Part shown: positions 3,571 through 7,960 of the stretch, one piece after another
Layout: each line of letters starts with the position of its first letter
How positions within the stretch are numbered: the stretch's first letter is position 1
Source of the DNA: Terriglobia bacterium
GTDB taxonomy: Bacteria > Acidobacteriota > Terriglobia > JAIQFV01
Direction: 5' to 3'
DNA length: 41,748 nucleotides
Assembly: GCA_049685715.1 (NCBI GenBank)
Contig: JBAVHJ010000751.1
Span: forward strand, 1-41,748
Made by a program: the position numbers and the translations under genes
Notes under the pieces: model-generated
What the model was told of the DNA's origin: nothing
Seen by the model: the letters and a program-made list of their open reading frames with translations, nothing else
Databases searched by the model: none

Positions 3571-5130
3571 CTAAAACTTTTCCGCGACCGCTTTTGACTG
3601 CAGGAAGAGCAGCAAGTAGTCACGGCCCCCCGCCTTGGAATCCGTCCCGCTCATGTTGAATCCGCCAAACGGATGAACATCCACGAGCGCCCCGGTGCAT
3701 TTGCGGTTGATGTACAGATTCCCGACATGGAATTCAGTTCGGGCATACTCGATGTGCGAGCGATCCCGTGAGTAGAGCGCTCCGGTCAAGCCGTACTCCG
3801 TGTTATTGGCAATTTCCATGGCTTGTGAAAAATCCTTGGCGCGCAAAGCGGCGAGCACGGGACCAAAAATCTCTTCGCATGAGATTCGCGCCTTGGGATC
3901 CAGGTCTCCTATAACGGTCGGCTGGATGAAATACCCATTCCCCGCCTTTTCATCTCTGCCTCCCCCGATGAGAAGCTGTCCTTCCTTCTTTCCAATCTCG
4001 ATGTAATGCAGGATGGATTCATAAGCCGATTTGCTCACGACAGGGCCCATGTAATTTTTCTGATACCGGGTGGGCCCCACCGTTATTTTCCGGGTGCGCT
4101 CGAGGATTTTTTCCATCGTCGACTCGTACACCTTCTCCTCAATGATGACGCGGGAGCATGCCGAGCACTTCTGGCCCTGAAAGCCAAATCCCGAGGCCAC
4201 CACGCCCTCTGCCGCCGCGTCGAGATCCGCCGTCCGATCGACCACGATGGTGTCTTTCCCACCCATTTCCGCGACTACGCGTTTGATCCAGTTCTGTCCC
4301 GGAGATACTTTGGCGGCAAGTTCATTAATGCGCAGGCCAACGGCTTTTGATCCTGTGAACAAAATAAACCGGGTGCGTGGGTGGGACACCAGGAAATCGC
4401 CGATCTGCCCGCCGCTCCCAGGCAAGAAATTAAGCACACCCGGAGGCAACGAAACGCCTTGCATGAGTTCCGCGAACTTATAGGCAATGAGAGGAGACTC
4501 GCTGGAGGGCTTGAGCACTACACAGTTTCCTGCGACGATCGCGGCAGTGGCCATGCCGACGGTAATGGCCAAGGGAAAATTCCAGGGCGGGATGACTACT
4601 CCCACTCCGAGGGGGATATAGAACGCGTCATTGTGCTCATCCGGCACAGGAGAAGGAGTCAGCGGCTGGGGGAGACCATAGCGAATGGCTTCACGGGCGT
4701 AAAACTCGATGAAGTCAATGGCCTCGCTGACATCGGCATCCGCCTCGTACCAGCTTTTTCCGACCTCAAATACCATCCATGACATGAATTCCATCTTGCG
4801 ACGGCGCATTTCTGAGGCCGCCGCAAACAGGTAATTGGCTCGCCGGCGCGCTGGCAGTCGGGACCAGTCGTGAAATGCCTCCCAGGCTGCATCGATTGCT
4901 TTTTCAGCCAGGGCTGGGTTCGCCCGGTGAAACGAACCCAGAACCTGATCCTGTTGAGAGGGGTTGATTGAGGGCAGCAAGTCCCCCGTCTCGAATCGTT
5001 CGCCACCAATTACGATCGGATATTTTTGGCAAAACTGCTTTTCAACTGCCAAAAGGGCAGTTTCCATGGCAGCAACGTTCTGCTGGCTTGTGAAGTCAAT
5101 TAAAGGCTGATTCTTAAAGGGATGAAACAT
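3571..5130 (-). CDS. pruA: L-glutamate gamma-semialdehyde (1-pyrroline-5-carboxylate) dehydrogenase
   Basis: 519-aa aldehyde dehydrogenase family protein (EMGGKD, FGFQGQKCSACSR, PFGGFNMSGTDSKAGG) with the length and N-terminus typical of RocA/PruA. AAAGGA lies upstream of the ATG. Confidence 0.85.
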   Translation of the reverse strand: MFHPFKNQPLIDFTSQQNVAAMETALLAVEKQFCQKYPIVIGGERFETGDLLPSINPSQQDQVLGSFHRANPALAEKAIDAAWEAFHDWSRLPARRRANYLFAAASEMRRRKMEFMSWMVFEVGKSWYEADADVSEAIDFIEFYAREAIRYGLPQPLTPSPVPDEHNDAFYIPLGVGVVIPPWNFPLAITVGMATAAIVAGNCVVLKPSSESPLIAYKFAELMQGVSLPPGVLNFLPGSGGQIGDFLVSHPRTRFILFTGSKAVGLRINELAAKVSPGQNWIKRVVAEMGGKDTIVVDRTADLDAAAEGVVASGFGFQGQKCSACSRVIIEEKVYESTMEKILERTRKITVGPTRYQKNYMGPVVSKSAYESILHYIEIGKKEGQLLIGGGRDEKAGNGYFIQPTVIGDLDPKARISCEEIFGPVLAALRAKDFSQAMEIANNTEYGLTGALYSRDRSHIEYARTEFHVGNLYINRKCTGALVDVHPFGGFNMSGTDSKAGGRDYLLLFLQSKAVAEKF

Positions 5131-5730
5131 AGGATAGTCCTTTCAAGAGAGGCTATGATTGCGGGTTGAACGGTGCCTGTGGAGGAACAGTCTTCGACAC
5201 CTCAATTCCTGACTGAACGCGGACACCCAAGGCAGCATAAATATCCTACGCGATTTTGGCCGGACTGCCAAGCGGCCAAGTCGGAGGGCAAAAGCATCGC
5301 TTGTTGGGCTCTGCGGTTAATGAGGCGGAGGAAAGGGGGATTTGCCGGCCACGATTACTGCGCCCGATCCTTCTCGAGAGTCGAAGCATCGCTCATGTGG
5401 TCAAACCCACAGACCCGTTGCTGGCCAAATCCAGGTGACCCAGGCACTCTTATCTTGTTGAAATACTGCTCGAAAACTCACCTCGGTAGACGATTTCAGG
5501 GGCTTGTGAGATTCGAATTGTAAAATTTTGGTCCGGGTATATTTCCGATCCCTCCTCCTCACCCTTAATACAATGAAAAGGGAAGTAATCCCGAATCTCC
5601 GGGGTGGTCAGCCGGAAAATCCAAATCGGGGATGCTTCCAGGAATTATATCGGATAGGATTTTGACAGTTGATGGATCTGCTTTGAGATTTTTAAGACGG
5701 ATCACTGTCAAAAGAGAAAGGGGAGGAGTC

Positions 5731-5889
5731 GTGGAAACTGTGATTGAGTACAAAAACGAATACCATGGGCGGTTATACACCTGCCAGTACAAGATAGAAT
5801 ATCTTCAATTCCGGGGATGCTACACGATGACCCTTGTTCCGGAGAGCGTGCAGTGGGATGAACAAGAAGCGCCGACCCTGGAAATGTGA
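5731..5889 (+). CDS. Small hypothetical protein (52 aa), paralog of 6408-6635
   Basis: GTG start lies 4 nt after GGAGG (5722-5726). About 18 of 44 hand-aligned residues are identical to the downstream ORF. Several conserved residues use different synonymous codons in the two copies. Confidence 0.5.
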   Translation: METVIEYKNEYHGRLYTCQYKIEYLQFRGCYTMTLVPESVQWDEQEAPTLEM

Positions 5890-6407
5890 CTTCCCTCATT
5901 GGGATACGAAAACGCAGGATTTTGGGTATTCTTAACATTCCTTTTTTGCAGGCTGAATCTTTGTATGCCGCAGTCTGAGTTAGGACCACGGCTCCCGCAA
6001 GCGTTAACCTGATAGCCTCTCCCCGCACACAAAACTTTTTCTTACGCGACCACCCCATCTGTATCATTCAGAAGAACCAATGTCCGCCCACCTACCCCAT
6101 AGACTCCTGAGGGCGAGACGCTTTACGGGACCAGATGCTTGAACACGTGGGAAGAGGGCCAACGTCCAACGGGACGCAAATCTCCCCTTGCCTGCAAAGT
6201 GGACTTGCTAAGATGGATTGCCCGGGCTCCCCCGAACTTTCCCTCAAGGCACATAGTCAATCCTTTGCCTAATGCACTCAATAAGACGGATTTGGACGAG
6301 GGTAAGAGTCTTGTGTGCCCATGACCCCCGGCGTCTGCAAGGAACACTAGCCTACGTTGTTATTTCGACAAATTCTAAGGGTATCCTCCAATAAGAACGG
6401 AGGACCC

Positions 6408-6635
6408 ATGGAGAGCATCATTGAGTTCAAAAGCTCACTCGATGGGCGATCCTATTCCTGCCAGTACAGGCGAATGTATTCCGAATCCGTTGGTTGCGAT
6501 ATCCTCACTATGGTCCCTGGAAGTCTTCGGTGGGAATCCCTATCCTCGGAAGAAAATCCTCATCCCGATTCAGGACAGGCCATATACGAGCGATTCTCAC
6601 GCCGTGTTTCGATCGAAGCCAGCCCGATGGAATAA
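6408..6635 (+). CDS. Small hypothetical protein (75 aa), paralog of 5731-5889
   Basis: ATG lies 4 nt after GGAGG (6399-6403). Shares the core [IV]IE[YF]K-x4-GR-x-Y-x-CQY-x3-Y-x4-GC-x5-VP-x-S-x2-W with the upstream ORF. Confidence 0.55.
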   Translation: MESIIEFKSSLDGRSYSCQYRRMYSESVGCDILTMVPGSLRWESLSSEENPHPDSGQAIYERFSRRVSIEASPME

Positions 6636-6757
6636 CAGGGATTAGGCAATTCAACACAAAGTTCATTGGATCTCCGCGTCCATCACTTTGATCAAGCGTC
6701 CAATGCTTGAGATCGAAGAGAAGGATGATGAACTGGGATCCTCACTCGGAGCCCTCC

Positions 6758-7960
6758 TTAATTCGGCTCCTCGACCCGTGGCCTGAGGCCCAGCGCGGCT
6801 TCCATCATCGCCCGAAAAATCTGTCGTTTCAGGCGGCGTTTCAAGTTGATGTAGTCCTGGTCTTCGAATAGTTGAGTCAAGATGGAATGGATACTCCGCG
6901 AAGCACGGGCGAATTGAATCATGCGCGTGGTGAACTCCCCTCCCCAGAAATGTCCCGTGTAGAATGTGGGCATCAATTGAGCCGCCCGTTGATGATTAAT
7001 TCCGAAATCCTCCCGCACCCTGACCGGGTATTGATCGATTCGGCCTTCCAAGAGAGACTGAACGAGAAGTTCCGCTGAGCGAATTGCAAAATAAATACCT
7101 TCCCCTGTGATGGGATCCACCAGCCCTGCCGCGTCGCCGATCAGCGCCCAGTTCGGACCCGCTATTTTCATCCGGCGAATCGTATCGAGTTCCGGCGTCG
7201 GAATCAGCGCAGAGTAGAAATAGGTGTCGCTGGGAATATCGTTTCCGTATATTTCTTGCGCAAAGTGCCGCAGCATTGATTTCAGTTCATCGGCACTGTG
7301 ATCTGAAAGTTTGGAGCAAATACCAAGTGAAAGATGGTCGCTTCGAGGGAAAGTCCATATGTAGCCCTTAAACTGTTTAAGGAATTTGATCCGGATGAAA
7401 TCTTCGCAGACGGGGAGGTGGTAACCCATCGCGGAGCTGTAGTCCAAATGGGTGAAATTATGAGCCAAGTTATCAGCCATAGAGCTCTTTGCCCCGTTGG
7501 CGATCACGACAAAGTCAGCCTCAAATGTTCCCTGGGTGCTGTGCAAGATCCAGGGGGCCATGGACTTGCCGGAGGACCCATTCAGACCCTCACCGGTTCC
7601 CTTTGATTCGAGGGCCTTAATGTGAGTTGACACGAGGCACGCGCCATGGGAGAGCGCCCTCTTGAGCATGAGTTCATTCAACGCTTTGCGCGAATAGATA
7701 AAGAGGGGAACGCGGAGGGGGAGATGGATGCTTCGCCCTTCATGATCAAGGAGTTCGATGTGCCGGATCGATTTCTTCTCCGCCTTGGCATCCAGTAGAA
7801 AGGGATAGCGTTGAATCCCCTTGGCGGTGACTCCGCCGCCACAGGGTTTCTCCCAAGCTCCGCCTTTTCGCTCAAAGAGCGCAACCTCGTGGCCCGCCTC
7901 GGCCAACAGCGAGGACGCCATAGCGCCGGCCGGTCCAGCTCCCACCACAGCGATCTTCAT
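6758..7960 (-). CDS. FAD-dependent oxidoreductase, geranylgeranyl reductase family
   Basis: N-terminal dinucleotide-binding motif MKIAVVGAGPAGA, EKPCGGGV, and LIGDAAGLVDPITGEGI, all typical of geranylgeranyl reductase-type flavoproteins. Confidence 0.8.
   Translation of the reverse strand: MKIAVVGAGPAGAMASSLLAEAGHEVALFERKGGAWEKPCGGGVTAKGIQRYPFLLDAKAEKKSIRHIELLDHEGRSIHLPLRVPLFIYSRKALNELMLKRALSHGACLVSTHIKALESKGTGEGLNGSSGKSMAPWILHSTQGTFEADFVVIANGAKSSMADNLAHNFTHLDYSSAMGYHLPVCEDFIRIKFLKQFKGYIWTFPRSDHLSLGICSKLSDHSADELKSMLRHFAQEIYGNDIPSDTYFYSALIPTPELDTIRRMKIAGPNWALIGDAAGLVDPITGEGIYFAIRSAELLVQSLLEGRIDQYPVRVREDFGINHQRAAQLMPTFYTGHFWGGEFTTRMIQFARASRSIHSILTQLFEDQDYINLKRRLKRQIFRAMMEAALGLRPRVEEPN

Follow-up and report, generated by a model that had tools for sequence, protein, structure and literature searches.

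Two short open reading frames lie on the plus strand between pruA and a FAD-dependent, geranylgeranyl-reductase-like gene in a Terriglobia bacterium, and they raise the question of whether they encode proteins at all and, if so, of which family and with which role. The window, meaning the whole stretch of DNA that was analysed, comprises 41,748 nucleotides. A first-pass annotation, made from the sequence alone, had described the pair as diverged paralogs with identical translation-signal geometry in an otherwise ORF-poor gap of about 1.6 kb, and had considered them its best candidate for an undescribed small-protein family.

The locus and its two open reading frames

The coordinates and lengths of both ORFs were reproduced, as were the GGAGG and the 4-nt distance before each start, and the gap between pruA and the FAD-dependent gene measures 1627 bp. 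Its main elements are:

3571-5130, minus strand: pruA (Aldedh), left flank of the gap
5722-5726, plus strand: Shine-Dalgarno sequence GGAGG of ORF1, followed by 4 nt and then GTG
5731-5889, plus strand: ORF1, GTG start, 52 aa, with a core of residues 1-44 and then an 8-residue tail
5890-6354, no strand: spacer between the paralogs, not alignable to lineages L002 or L006
6399-6403, plus strand: Shine-Dalgarno sequence GGAGG of ORF2, followed by 4 nt and then ATG
6408-6635, plus strand: ORF2, ATG start, 75 aa, stop codon at 6633-6635
6408-6539, plus strand: predicted beta-sheet core of ORF2, codons 1-44
6540-6632, plus strand: acidic, predicted disordered tail of ORF2, codons 45-75
6758-7960, minus strand: FAD-dependent, geranylgeranyl-reductase-like gene, right flank of the gap

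The two cores are separated by 518 nt. Both encode an acidic and soluble module, and the ORF1 protein has a pI of 4.5. The local G+C is low, at 24/60 in both 5521-5580 and 5881-5940, and amounts to 50.4% over the gap compared with 54.6% over the window. Both proteins lack a signal peptide, as had been proposed, and a membrane segment as well, the maximum Kyte-Doolittle mean over 15 residues being below 0.9. In NCBI records both ORFs are listed as "hypothetical protein", with a 52-aa entry for ORF1. Searches of six-frame translations with tblastn and HMMs revealed no third copy of the core elsewhere in the window; by tblastn over the whole window the sole real non-self match of each ORF is the other ORF (E about 1e-11), the next best match having an E of about 0.1.

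Paralogy and selection on the coding frame

BLASTP aligns the two translations without gaps (19/43 identical, 31/43 positives, E 2e-15), in agreement with the roughly 18 identities over about 44 residues counted previously. All five synonymous codon pairs that had been cited as a sign of protein-level selection are correct (cgg/cga, tac/tat, gtt/gtc, ccg/cct, agc/agt); the identical residues are encoded by the same codon in 10 cases and by synonymous codons in 8. At the nucleotide level the cores are identical at 78/132 positions, which divide over codon positions 1, 2 and 3 as 28, 28 and 22 of 44. The dN/dS between the copies, for which a value near 1.0 had been named as an argument against selection, is about 0.24 (pS 0.69, pN 0.34, Fisher p 0.0016).

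Three other Terriglobia lineages (L008, L001-5 and L006/7/9) have orthologs of both ORFs in the syntenic position, and L011 has a syntenic ortholog of ORF2. In comparisons between orthologs pN/pS is 0.05-0.35 in frame 0 only, where Fisher p is 7e-2 in the closest pair and falls as low as 3e-11; frames +1 and +2 give values of 0.8-7, mostly 1-7. For ORF1 the values are 0.05-0.33, likewise in frame 0 only and with 9-21 differences at third codon positions, while the ORF2 core gives 0.14-0.35. Since the low ratios are specific to one frame and substitutions between orthologs are concentrated at third codon positions, both ORFs are selected as proteins, as the first-pass annotation had argued, and their modules of about 44 residues are under strong purifying selection. 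Indels in the core were found in none of the lineages. The tail of ORF2 evolves almost neutrally (omega about 0.7-0.8), its sequence drifting while frame and length are retained. An alternative conserved frame or strand beneath ORF2 was rejected, as no frame other than +0 stays open throughout the five lineages.

The two genes differ in their fate. ORF2 is intact and exactly 75 aa long in 5/5 lineages, all of which keep its GGAGG with the 4-nt distance; the corresponding signal of ORF1 is kept in L008 and L002 and degraded in L006, where ORF1 also contains stops. ORF1 of the SRVP_39 lineage carries two in-frame stop codons, downstream of which the sequence still aligns in frame, and is therefore dispensable in that lineage. 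Hence the loss of frame among homologs, which had been named as evidence against the family, is seen for ORF1 in part and not for ORF2. The duplication predates the split of at least four Terriglobia lineages, and in one of them ORF1 was later inactivated. The only match among the metagenome_contigs (L010) is a partial one of 23 residues and was treated as spurious.

Upstream regions and a missing cyclase gene

Apart from the coding frames, the gap contains two conserved upstream regions and a site at which a gene of the relatives is missing:

5278-5521, no strand: cyclase site, where relatives carry about 1.6 kb with a plus-strand gene for a 421-aa membrane-anchored GAF + Guanylate_cyc protein (blastn breakpoints)
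5521-5650, plus strand: conserved leader in front of ORF1, non-coding, with an identity of about 77% between deep lineages
5538-5543, plus strand: TATATT box inside the leader
5550-5560, plus strand: CU-rich stretch CCCTCCTCCTC inside the leader, complementary to the Shine-Dalgarno region of ORF1
about 5581-5639, plus strand: nested hairpin inside the leader
6355-6407, plus strand: conserved 53-nt stretch CGTTGTTATTTCGACAAATT... directly 5' of ORF2, alignable across all deep lineages

The conservation of the leader drops to 36-57% identity among deep lineages in the adjoining 5651-5720. A coding role of the leader was rejected, as it shows 1-nt indels and no codon periodicity. Both RNAalifold and the MFE fold pair its CU-rich stretch with the Shine-Dalgarno region of ORF1. 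The fold has z-scores of only -0.05 to -2.3 and a slightly unfavourable covariation term, nhmmer found no other copies of the leader, and cmscan against Rfam gave 0 matches in 5000-6900 on both strands at E<=1, for which reasons a strongly structured or recurrent RNA was rejected. The leader is regarded here as a conserved element that is non-coding and may include an anti-Shine-Dalgarno stretch.

The stretch at 6355-6407 is probably a promoter or operator; it contains no convincing sigma-70 match, and sigma-70 promoters and intrinsic terminators are no more frequent in the gap than in shuffled sequence. In the window lineage the GGAGG of ORF2 can pair with UCCUCC at 6384-6389 in a hairpin of -16.7 kcal/mol (z -3.0); L002 keeps the stem of this hairpin, and L006 and L011 lack it. 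A regulatory sequence common to both upstream regions was sought, and only chance short words were found. The spacer between the genes holds no repeats of note and is 85% identical to that of L008, a close relative; the segments alignable to L002/L006 all have a higher identity to L008, and only the scar at 5278-5521 has a lower one. As the spacer is unconserved, ORF1 and ORF2 probably form separate transcription units.

The description of the gap as ORF-poor holds for the window and not for the locus as such, since the gap looks empty partly because the GAF-adenylate/guanylate cyclase gene, which in relatives sits between pruA and ORF1, is missing. A search with the cyclase by tblastn detected no remnant in the window or in L008. 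Both lineages have lost the cyclase and kept the two ORFs under selection, and the cyclase is therefore not an obligate partner.

A wider family of small proteins

An all-against-library HMM search over 1.84 billion representatives returned 16 matches with E<1e-3, of which about 12 are small proteins, mostly of 47-71 aa, with the motifs DGRxYxCxY and VPGSLRW; residues G13, C18, Y20, V36 and W42 are invariant across distant members. The distant homologs share 30-50% identity and the same length and motifs, and most members, including ORF1, end 3-10 residues past the fold; one (P0012, from L013) has a frameshifted N-terminus. The long proteins that the profile matches weakly (P0015-P0019) are Big_1/VWA and Ig proteins. 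So far the family has turned up only in Acidobacteriota MAGs and soil metagenome contigs, and tblastn gave no match on plasmids or phages.

None of the curated libraries searched contains the family. ORF1 and ORF2 match no Pfam family at E<=1; the 16 members reach at best E 0.05 in Pfam, scattered over unrelated models, and have no match in NCBIfam; PADLOC and PHROGs gave nothing below E 0.08, and hmmsearch of the profile against PDB sequences had a best E of 3.4. The earlier statements that the proteins contain no recognisable domain and represent an undescribed family are borne out by these searches. A kinship with RHS/YD-repeat hairpins, suggested by the pattern xYxxxLDGRxY, was rejected: RHS_repeat does not match at E<=1, and the long P0015-P0019 are not RHS proteins.

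ORF1 and ORF2 are thus, to judge from their sequences, very likely real protein-coding genes of a new family. The family is categorically new in the sense that it has no detectable relation to a described family or fold, not in the sense of a demonstrated mechanism. Bacterial smORF families have been catalogued that are uncharacterised, for example in the GMSC catalogue (PMC11364881). These are found mainly in metagenomes, and the window ORFs resemble them in being short (<100 aa), conserved, predicted by gene callers and nameless; such a catalogue is, unlike a named functional family, a bookkeeping category. Equally close are the NCBI "hypothetical protein" entries MFI5173542.1, MFI5173543.1 and MBZ5551506.1, and neither the literature nor the libraries searched yielded a description of the fold, partner gene, paralogy or selection of these sequences.

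Predicted fold and the two cysteines

For residues 1-44 AlphaFold2 predicts, in each of the two proteins, a long and twisted beta-meander of antiparallel strands with pLDDT >90; the models were built on a shallow alignment of 16 sequences. The strand layout is identical in the two paralogs (beta1 3-11, a DG turn, beta2 14-25, beta3 30-35, then VPGSLRW). The mean pLDDT of ORF1 is 86.6; in ORF2 residues 1-40 score 92-95 and the 31-residue tail falls below 50 and is predicted to be disordered. The small beta-rich fold that had been guessed from the residue pattern is hence also the predicted one. Foldseek with both models gave no match in the PDB at E<=0.001 (best 0.2-0.3). The best matches, segments of GFP-like barrels and cystatin, have three long antiparallel strands in a twisted sheet in common with the models (TM about 0.5, probability up to 0.95), but they are fragments of larger folds with E of 0.2-1 and 7-22% identity, and the likeness is geometric only, without functional implication.

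The accompanying idea of a metal- or disulfide-stabilised fold found no support. Only Cys18 is invariant, whereas four members (P0009, P0013, P0014, P0017) have A, H, R or V in place of Cys30, and a two-Cys metal or disulfide site is therefore unsupported. In the predicted strand register C18 would lie opposite residues 36-37 and C30 opposite residue 25, which would put the two about seven residues apart along neighbouring strands. With a single invariant Cys and no conserved His residues in the family, a rubredoxin or zinc-ribbon-like protein, which normally has four Cys/His ligands, and a disulfide mini-protein were both rejected.

Neighbouring genes of distant members

The first-pass annotation had raised the idea of a recurrent partner gene, and in several distant members such a gene exists: directly downstream, an overlapping ORF encodes a basic protein of 44-71 aa. 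It is present in L012/L018, L016, L014/15 and the P0006 contig, and in at least four distant lineages it overlaps the 3' end of the core by 20-41 nt on the same strand. The core has a pI of 4.5-6.1 compared with 9-10 for the partner, which is represented by 25 database clusters. From the window clade the partner is absent by HMM and by six-frame search of the window. A resemblance by eye between the ORF2 tail and the partner ("GQAIYERFSRRVS" vs "AQSWVKEFRERKS") was discarded as a fused remnant, as Smith-Waterman alignment with 2000 shuffles gave p 0.09-0.99.

Signalling genes are neighbours in about 5 of 8 independent contexts. The GAF-cyclase adjoins ORF1 in L002 and L006, response-regulator-GAF-PAS giants lie beside P0012 and P0017, an EAL protein is encoded 55 nt downstream of P0014, and SpoIIE is found near P0020. 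Acidobacteriota are rich in such genes and the association could be due to chance. The neighbourhoods of distant members are otherwise diverse, with an amino-acid permease, VIT1, gluconate dehydrogenase and an ABC transporter.

Possible roles of the family

Three explanations compete with that of an adaptor or regulator in signalling. One is that the ORFs are fortuitous and that the similarity stems from conserved DNA or RNA without coding function, or from the decaying pieces of some larger gene. The stops in ORF1 of the SRVP_39 lineage, with sequence still alignable in frame behind them, the frameshift in P0012 and the strongly conserved non-coding element just upstream could be read in this way, but the constraint acts on one frame, with synonymous sites near saturation (pS 0.4-0.8 vs pN 0.02-0.21), which effectively refutes this reading. 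The absence of core indels, the conserved start codons and Shine-Dalgarno sequences, the retention of length and motifs at 30-50% identity and the lack of an Rfam match point in the same direction, and the leader, by contrast, behaves as non-coding sequence does; a fortuitous origin is hardly credible. Only slightly less remote is a function as RiPP precursors, in which the first 44 residues would serve as leader and the variable C-terminus would supply the core peptide. Tandem copies are usual for RiPP precursors, and the paralogs stand in tandem; the N-terminus of ORF2 is conserved and its C-terminal 31 residues evolve fast; and the FAD-dependent oxidoreductase, which has faint Trp_halogenase similarity, is convergent to ORF2 in all loci of the window clade. 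However, that gene is not found beside distant members, and none of the eight contexts examined contains a maturation enzyme such as a radical SAM protein, YcaO or a lanthipeptide synthetase, or a peptidase or exporter. The 44 residues are predicted as a well-ordered fold, where a leader should be a recognition sequence, and most proteins, ORF1 among them, end within 3-10 residues of that fold.

A toxin-antitoxin-like cassette is unlikely, yet clearly more plausible than these two. According to this explanation the acidic beta core is the antitoxin or neutraliser and the basic partner the effector, which the window clade would have lost while keeping orphan cores, e.g. as anti-addiction factors or regulators. 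The opposite charges of core and partner speak for it, as do the overlap of a small acidic protein gene with a basic ORF behind it, an arrangement resembling type II systems, the occurrence of the cassette in unrelated and variable neighbourhoods, once near an rve integrase, and its patchy phyletic spread, with about a dozen clusters among the 1.84 billion representatives. Co-directional overlapping genes, as in type II systems, are found in L012, L014, L016, L018 and the P0006 contig and not in the window, where two cores lie 518 nt apart, stably syntenic and without the basic partner; synteny in four lineages and strong purifying selection are unlike a mobile addiction module. Furthermore, both proteins, at about 45-70 aa, are smaller than typical type II components, Pfam, NCBIfam and PADLOC contain no toxin, antitoxin or defence model that matches either of them, a toxin fold is not recognisable in the partner, and no copies were found on plasmids or phages.

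The reading preferred here, tentatively and with somewhat less than an even chance, is that the functional tandem paralogs ORF1 and ORF2 most likely encode a small adaptor or regulatory subunit within a signalling module. Genes for GAF-type sensors, cyclases or EAL proteins often lie nearby. With only 44 residues, a three-stranded sheet could not bury its aromatic face (I5, F7, Y16, C18, Y20, Y24, W42) alone, so the protein would probably form a homo- or hetero-oligomer or dock its sheet on a partner protein. On the grounds of size and surface, action by oligomerisation or partner binding has about an even chance of being correct. In several distant relatives the overlapping basic protein would be the likely binding partner, and in the window clade the second paralog may substitute for it. 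The conserved leader of 130 nt may control the expression of ORF1, perhaps in that it masks the Shine-Dalgarno sequence. A specific tie of the family to GAF or cyclic-nucleotide signalling is doubtful, with a probability a little above that of the toxin-antitoxin-like cassette.

A more elaborate and rather improbable proposal joins these elements: core and overlapping basic partner would be an unrecognised two-protein module of Acidobacteriota, in which the 44-residue beta-meander would use its invariant Cys-Tyr-Trp face to hold either a helical effector of basic charge or the GAF domain of a sensor or cyclase encoded next to it, while in the window clade a co-evolving paralog would have replaced the effector, giving an ORF1:ORF2 heterodimer, and a new leader RNA would gate production by masking the Shine-Dalgarno sequence. 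Should the family prove to be an adaptor of GAF or cyclic-nucleotide signalling, or half of a new toxin-antitoxin-like system, it would be a new building block for bacterial regulation. Acidobacteriota are among the most abundant soil bacteria and much of their gene content is nameless; here a cleanly supported small-protein family had been left "hypothetical" by automated annotation. The practical value is modest today and lies in a well-delimited locus, with genes of 52 and 75 codons and the conserved 130-nt leader, on which expression and interactions can be tested.

With regard to oligomerisation, CsrA/RsmA and the swapped-hairpin proteins AbrB/MazE are regulators of 45-60 aa that have too few strands for a core of their own and form intertwined dimers. 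The family core is likewise small and all-beta, but its three long predicted strands differ from the strand orders of those proteins, which include a helix or five strands. Their Pfam models do not match at E<=1 and they are absent among the Foldseek matches in the PDB. Unlike proteins of this type, the family has no evident basic nucleic-acid-binding surface, its core being acidic.

The small genes ORF1 and ORF2 and their locus

A gap of 1627 bp separates two minus-strand genes, of the pruA type and of an FAD-dependent reductase, and contains the two small plus-strand genes ORF1 and ORF2.

3571-5130, minus strand: pruA-type aldehyde-dehydrogenase gene
5722-5726, plus strand: GGAGG of ORF1, 4 nt before the start
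5731-5889, plus strand: ORF1, 52 aa, GTG start
6399-6403, plus strand: GGAGG of ORF2, 4 nt before the start
6408-6635, plus strand: ORF2, 75 aa, ATG start
6758-7960, minus strand: FAD-dependent, geranylgeranyl-reductase-like gene

Over residues 1-43 the two products align without gaps, with 19 identical and 31 positive positions (BLASTP, E 2e-15), in agreement with the ungapped paralog pair described in the first-pass annotation. Since each ORF matched only itself and the other (E ~1e-11; next best E ~0.1) in a permissive six-frame tblastn search of all 41.7 kb, there are exactly two copies, a count confirmed by the family HMM. Identical residues use the same codon in 10 cases and synonymous codons in 8, identity at codon positions 1/2/3 is 28/28/22 of 44, and the pair shows a pS of 0.69, a pN of 0.34 and a dN/dS of about 0.24 (Fisher p 0.0016). 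The observation made in the first-pass annotation holds in full: its examples of synonymous codons are all correct, GGAGG lies exactly 4 nt ahead of both starts, and two 60-nt stretches do contain 24 G+C, the gap as a whole having a G+C content of 50.4% versus 54.6% overall.

Conservation and selection

A word-indexed search covering 5.8 billion proteins, followed by look-up of the encoding contigs, showed that other Terriglobia lineages carry this locus too. Proteins of the MAG OBJ2 (L008) are 92-93% identical to those of the window, the MAGs LAO21 (GCA_020073085; L001-L005) and SRVP_39 (L006, L007 and L009) are more distant, and on the short contig L011 ORF2 alone is present. The conserved order is acyl-CoA dehydrogenase, DsbD_N protein, pruA, ORF1, ORF2, FAD reductase, MscS channel and TonB-type outer-membrane protein.

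For the 44-codon core, pN/pS is 0.05-0.33 in ORF1 and 0.14-0.35 in ORF2 (0.05-0.35 altogether), with Fisher p values between 7e-2, for the closest pair, and 3e-11; when the sequence is read in frame +1 or +2 instead, the ratio is mostly 1-7 (range 0.8-7). Core pS reaches 0.4-0.8 between lineages, and silent sites are therefore near saturation. Third positions carry an excess of the differences (2/2/16 by codon position for ORF1 between the window and L002, 8/3/23 for ORF2 between L002 and L006), neither core contains an indel, and the GTG and ATG starts as well as GGAGG with its 4-nt spacing are conserved, apart from the decayed Shine-Dalgarno sequence of ORF1 in the L006 lineage. The frame conservation and low dN/dS expected by the first-pass annotation were thus found, and ORF1 and ORF2 are shown to be real genes, paralogs within an undescribed family, with strong purifying selection on the 44-residue module and a duplication that predates the sampled lineages.

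In the SRVP_39 lineage the ORF1 ortholog (5435-5593 in L006, L007 and L009) has a TGA at codon 38, which replaces the conserved Gly of VPGSLRW, and a TAG at codon 45, with SLRW still in frame past the first stop. Together with the decayed Shine-Dalgarno sequence this indicates that ORF1 is inactivated or truncated there, which suggests a recent pseudogenisation and fits redundancy between the paralogs. The ORF2 tail (codons 45-75) evolves near neutrality (omega 0.7-0.8); in five lineages the ORF2 frame nevertheless runs for exactly 75 codons and is the sole one open in all five, and the chance of the tail staying open at that length is about 0.29 x 0.22 in a crude substitution-only simulation. 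The tail is thus under weak maintenance only, a behaviour common in disordered appendages.

Predicted structure and relation to known families

AlphaFold2 models built on a 16-sequence alignment give both proteins the same layout, with strands at residues 3-11, 14-25 and 30-35 and a short one at 41-42, a pLDDT of ~91-95 for residues 1-44 and one below 50 for the ORF2 tail. The small beta-rich fold proposed earlier is thereby supported by a confident all-beta prediction. In the models, the central strand would present Y16, C18, Y20 and Y24 on one face, with I5 and F7 to one side of them and the V36/P37 region to the other; since a 44-residue sheet alone cannot bury this aromatic/Cys face, the core likely oligomerises or docks on another protein.

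A Foldseek comparison of the models with the PDB returned nothing better than E 0.2-0.3, the best matches being three-stranded fragments of GFP-like barrels and cystatin sheets. As the first-pass annotation had recognised no known domain, so searches of Pfam, NCBIfam, PADLOC and PHROGs, and of PDB sequences with the family profile, gave no credible match, and tblastn detected no copies among 72,556 plasmids and 50,697 phage records. Both proteins, acidic (pI 4.5-5) and hydrophilic, lack a membrane segment and, as had been claimed, a signal peptide. The family is new in that relatives are absent from the curated sequence libraries searched and from PDB structures, while its sequences are already deposited as hypothetical proteins at NCBI (MFI5173542.1, 52 aa; MFI5173543.1, 75 aa; MBZ5551506.1, an upstream-extended call). 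Metagenomes contain many conserved families of orphan small proteins (PMC11364881).

The wider family and its basic partner

Scanned exhaustively with HMMER, 1.84 billion cluster representatives yielded 16 matches at E<1e-3, about 12 of them small proteins, and a second word-indexed search added 3 family members. The small members are mostly 47-71 aa long, with a few gene calls extended upstream to 95-114 aa, and 27-50% identical to ORF2; named core members come only from Terriglobia/Acidobacteriia MAGs. The very long matches P0015-P0019 were spurious and correspond to Big_1/VWA and Ig proteins. In the consensus, ME.I.EY.S.LDGR.Y.C.Y...Y.E.LGCY...MVPGSLRW, G13, C18, Y20, V36 and W42 are invariant. 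Of the two Cys only C18 is among them; four members have another residue in place of C30. The family therefore does not share a metal or disulfide site built on two Cys, and the earlier idea of a metal- or disulfide-stabilised fold is not supported. In the related contig L013, a short frame that begins at an upstream ATG (5834-5866, METIHECKGI*) resembles the family N-terminus, and the called start of its core protein P0012 (5847-5999) lies 13 nt later in another frame, which points to a 1-nt frameshift or sequencing error. At position 433 of L018 a CTG stands where the family start codon is expected by homology.

In distant relatives (L012/L018, L016, L014/L015 and the contig of P0006) the 3' end of the core gene overlaps, by 20-41 nt and in another frame, a second ORF, whose product is basic (pI 9-10), 44-66 aa long in these contigs and up to 71 aa in the family, and marked by the motifs M.I[KR]L[IV]K and AQSWVEEFKARK.

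L012 6134-6334: partner ORF
L018 566-766: partner ORF
L016 1218-1391: partner ORF
L014 1107-1241: partner ORF

This partner is a second undescribed small-protein family, with 25 clusters at 90% identity, a member from a Blastocatellia MAG (HXG64767.1) and no known relatives in the libraries searched. Tandem copies and a recurrent partner gene, both raised in the first-pass annotation, are thus found, in different lineages. After the core-partner pair, the related contigs L012 (6413-6727) and L018 (846-1160) share a third conserved ORF of 104 aa (MTEADGQKYTVYVDDNFHYMDEEERY...) with no Pfam match.

Gene neighbourhoods and a missing cyclase

Distant members differ in their neighbours (permease, VIT1, gluconate dehydrogenase subunit, ABC transporter). 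Signalling genes recur: response-regulator-GAF-PAS giants of >2200 aa adjoin P0012 and the hit P0017, P0014 is followed after 55 nt by an EAL protein, and a SpoIIE phosphatase is found near P0020. In LAO21 and SRVP_39, a gene between pruA and ORF1, directly upstream of and on the same strand as the latter, encodes a membrane-anchored protein of 421 aa (92.6% identical between the two) with an N-terminal membrane helix, a GAF domain and a Guanylate_cyc domain. SRVP_39 has an extra ORF of 141 aa between pruA and the cyclase gene (L006 3256-3681, minus strand), which the other lineages lack and which has no Pfam match.

The cyclase gene is absent from the window and L008, with no detectable remnant, and 244 bp (window 5278-5521) occupy the place of ~1.6 kb in the relatives (L002 3701-5326, L006 3854-5119). 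Comparison of the loci indicates that it was probably lost in the ancestor of the window and L008 by a lineage-specific deletion, the parsimonious reading because both deeper lineages carry the gene, and this loss would explain much of the ORF-poor gap noted in the first-pass annotation: the gap itself is real, but its ORF-poor character is not intrinsic. The window and L008 also show that ORF1 and ORF2 stay under selection without the cyclase.

Possible function

The earlier interpretation is essentially right, the exceptions being its metal/disulfide suggestion and its view of the gap. The constraint on ORF1 and ORF2 is protein-level selection, not conserved DNA or RNA, and a reading of the two as non-coding is unlikely; the same applies to their being RiPP precursors. 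The strongest competing explanation, to which we give a small though real chance, is a toxin-antitoxin-like cassette that has lost its basic member in the window clade. The partner HMM has no match in the window, its close relatives, L013 or L017, and an apparent partner-like resemblance of the ORF2 tail was not significant. In the preferred reading, the 44-residue module would work as an oligomer or by binding a partner, ORF1 may pair with ORF2 and so replace the missing basic partner, and the role would be regulatory, perhaps tied to GAF/cyclic-nucleotide signalling.

Possible regulatory elements

A conserved stretch lies upstream of each gene.

5521-5650: conserved leader upstream of ORF1, ~130 nt, ~77% identity among deep lineages
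Directly upstream of ORF2: conserved 53-nt stretch

The identity of the leader stands where silent sites are saturated; the 70 nt adjoining the ORF1 start reach just 36-57% among the deep lineages, and the ORF1-ORF2 spacer is unalignable. One-nucleotide indels and a lack of codon periodicity show that the leader is non-coding. Rfam has no match for it, a second copy is absent from the window and the retrieved sequence of relatives, and it contains a TATATT box, a CU-rich run (5550-5560) and a nested hairpin. In each lineage the CU-rich run complements that lineage's own Shine-Dalgarno region, and RNAalifold and MFE folds pair it with that of ORF1 at unremarkable energies (z -0.05 to -2.3) and with a slightly unfavourable covariation term. 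Over the ORF2 Shine-Dalgarno sequence, a UCCUCC/GGAGGA hairpin (window 6384-6404) occurs in the window and L002 only and is absent in L006 and L011; with a predicted -16.7 kcal/mol for 6370-6420 in the window (z -3.0), it could sequester that sequence. Shine-Dalgarno masking at ORF1 and ORF2 is put forward as a hypothesis only.

The ORF2 start lies exactly 350 nt from the stop of the convergent FAD-reductase gene (window 6408 to 6758), both in the window and in L002 and L006; L008 is off by a few bases. Yet the last ~220 nt of this interval are unalignable between the window and L006 (blastn).
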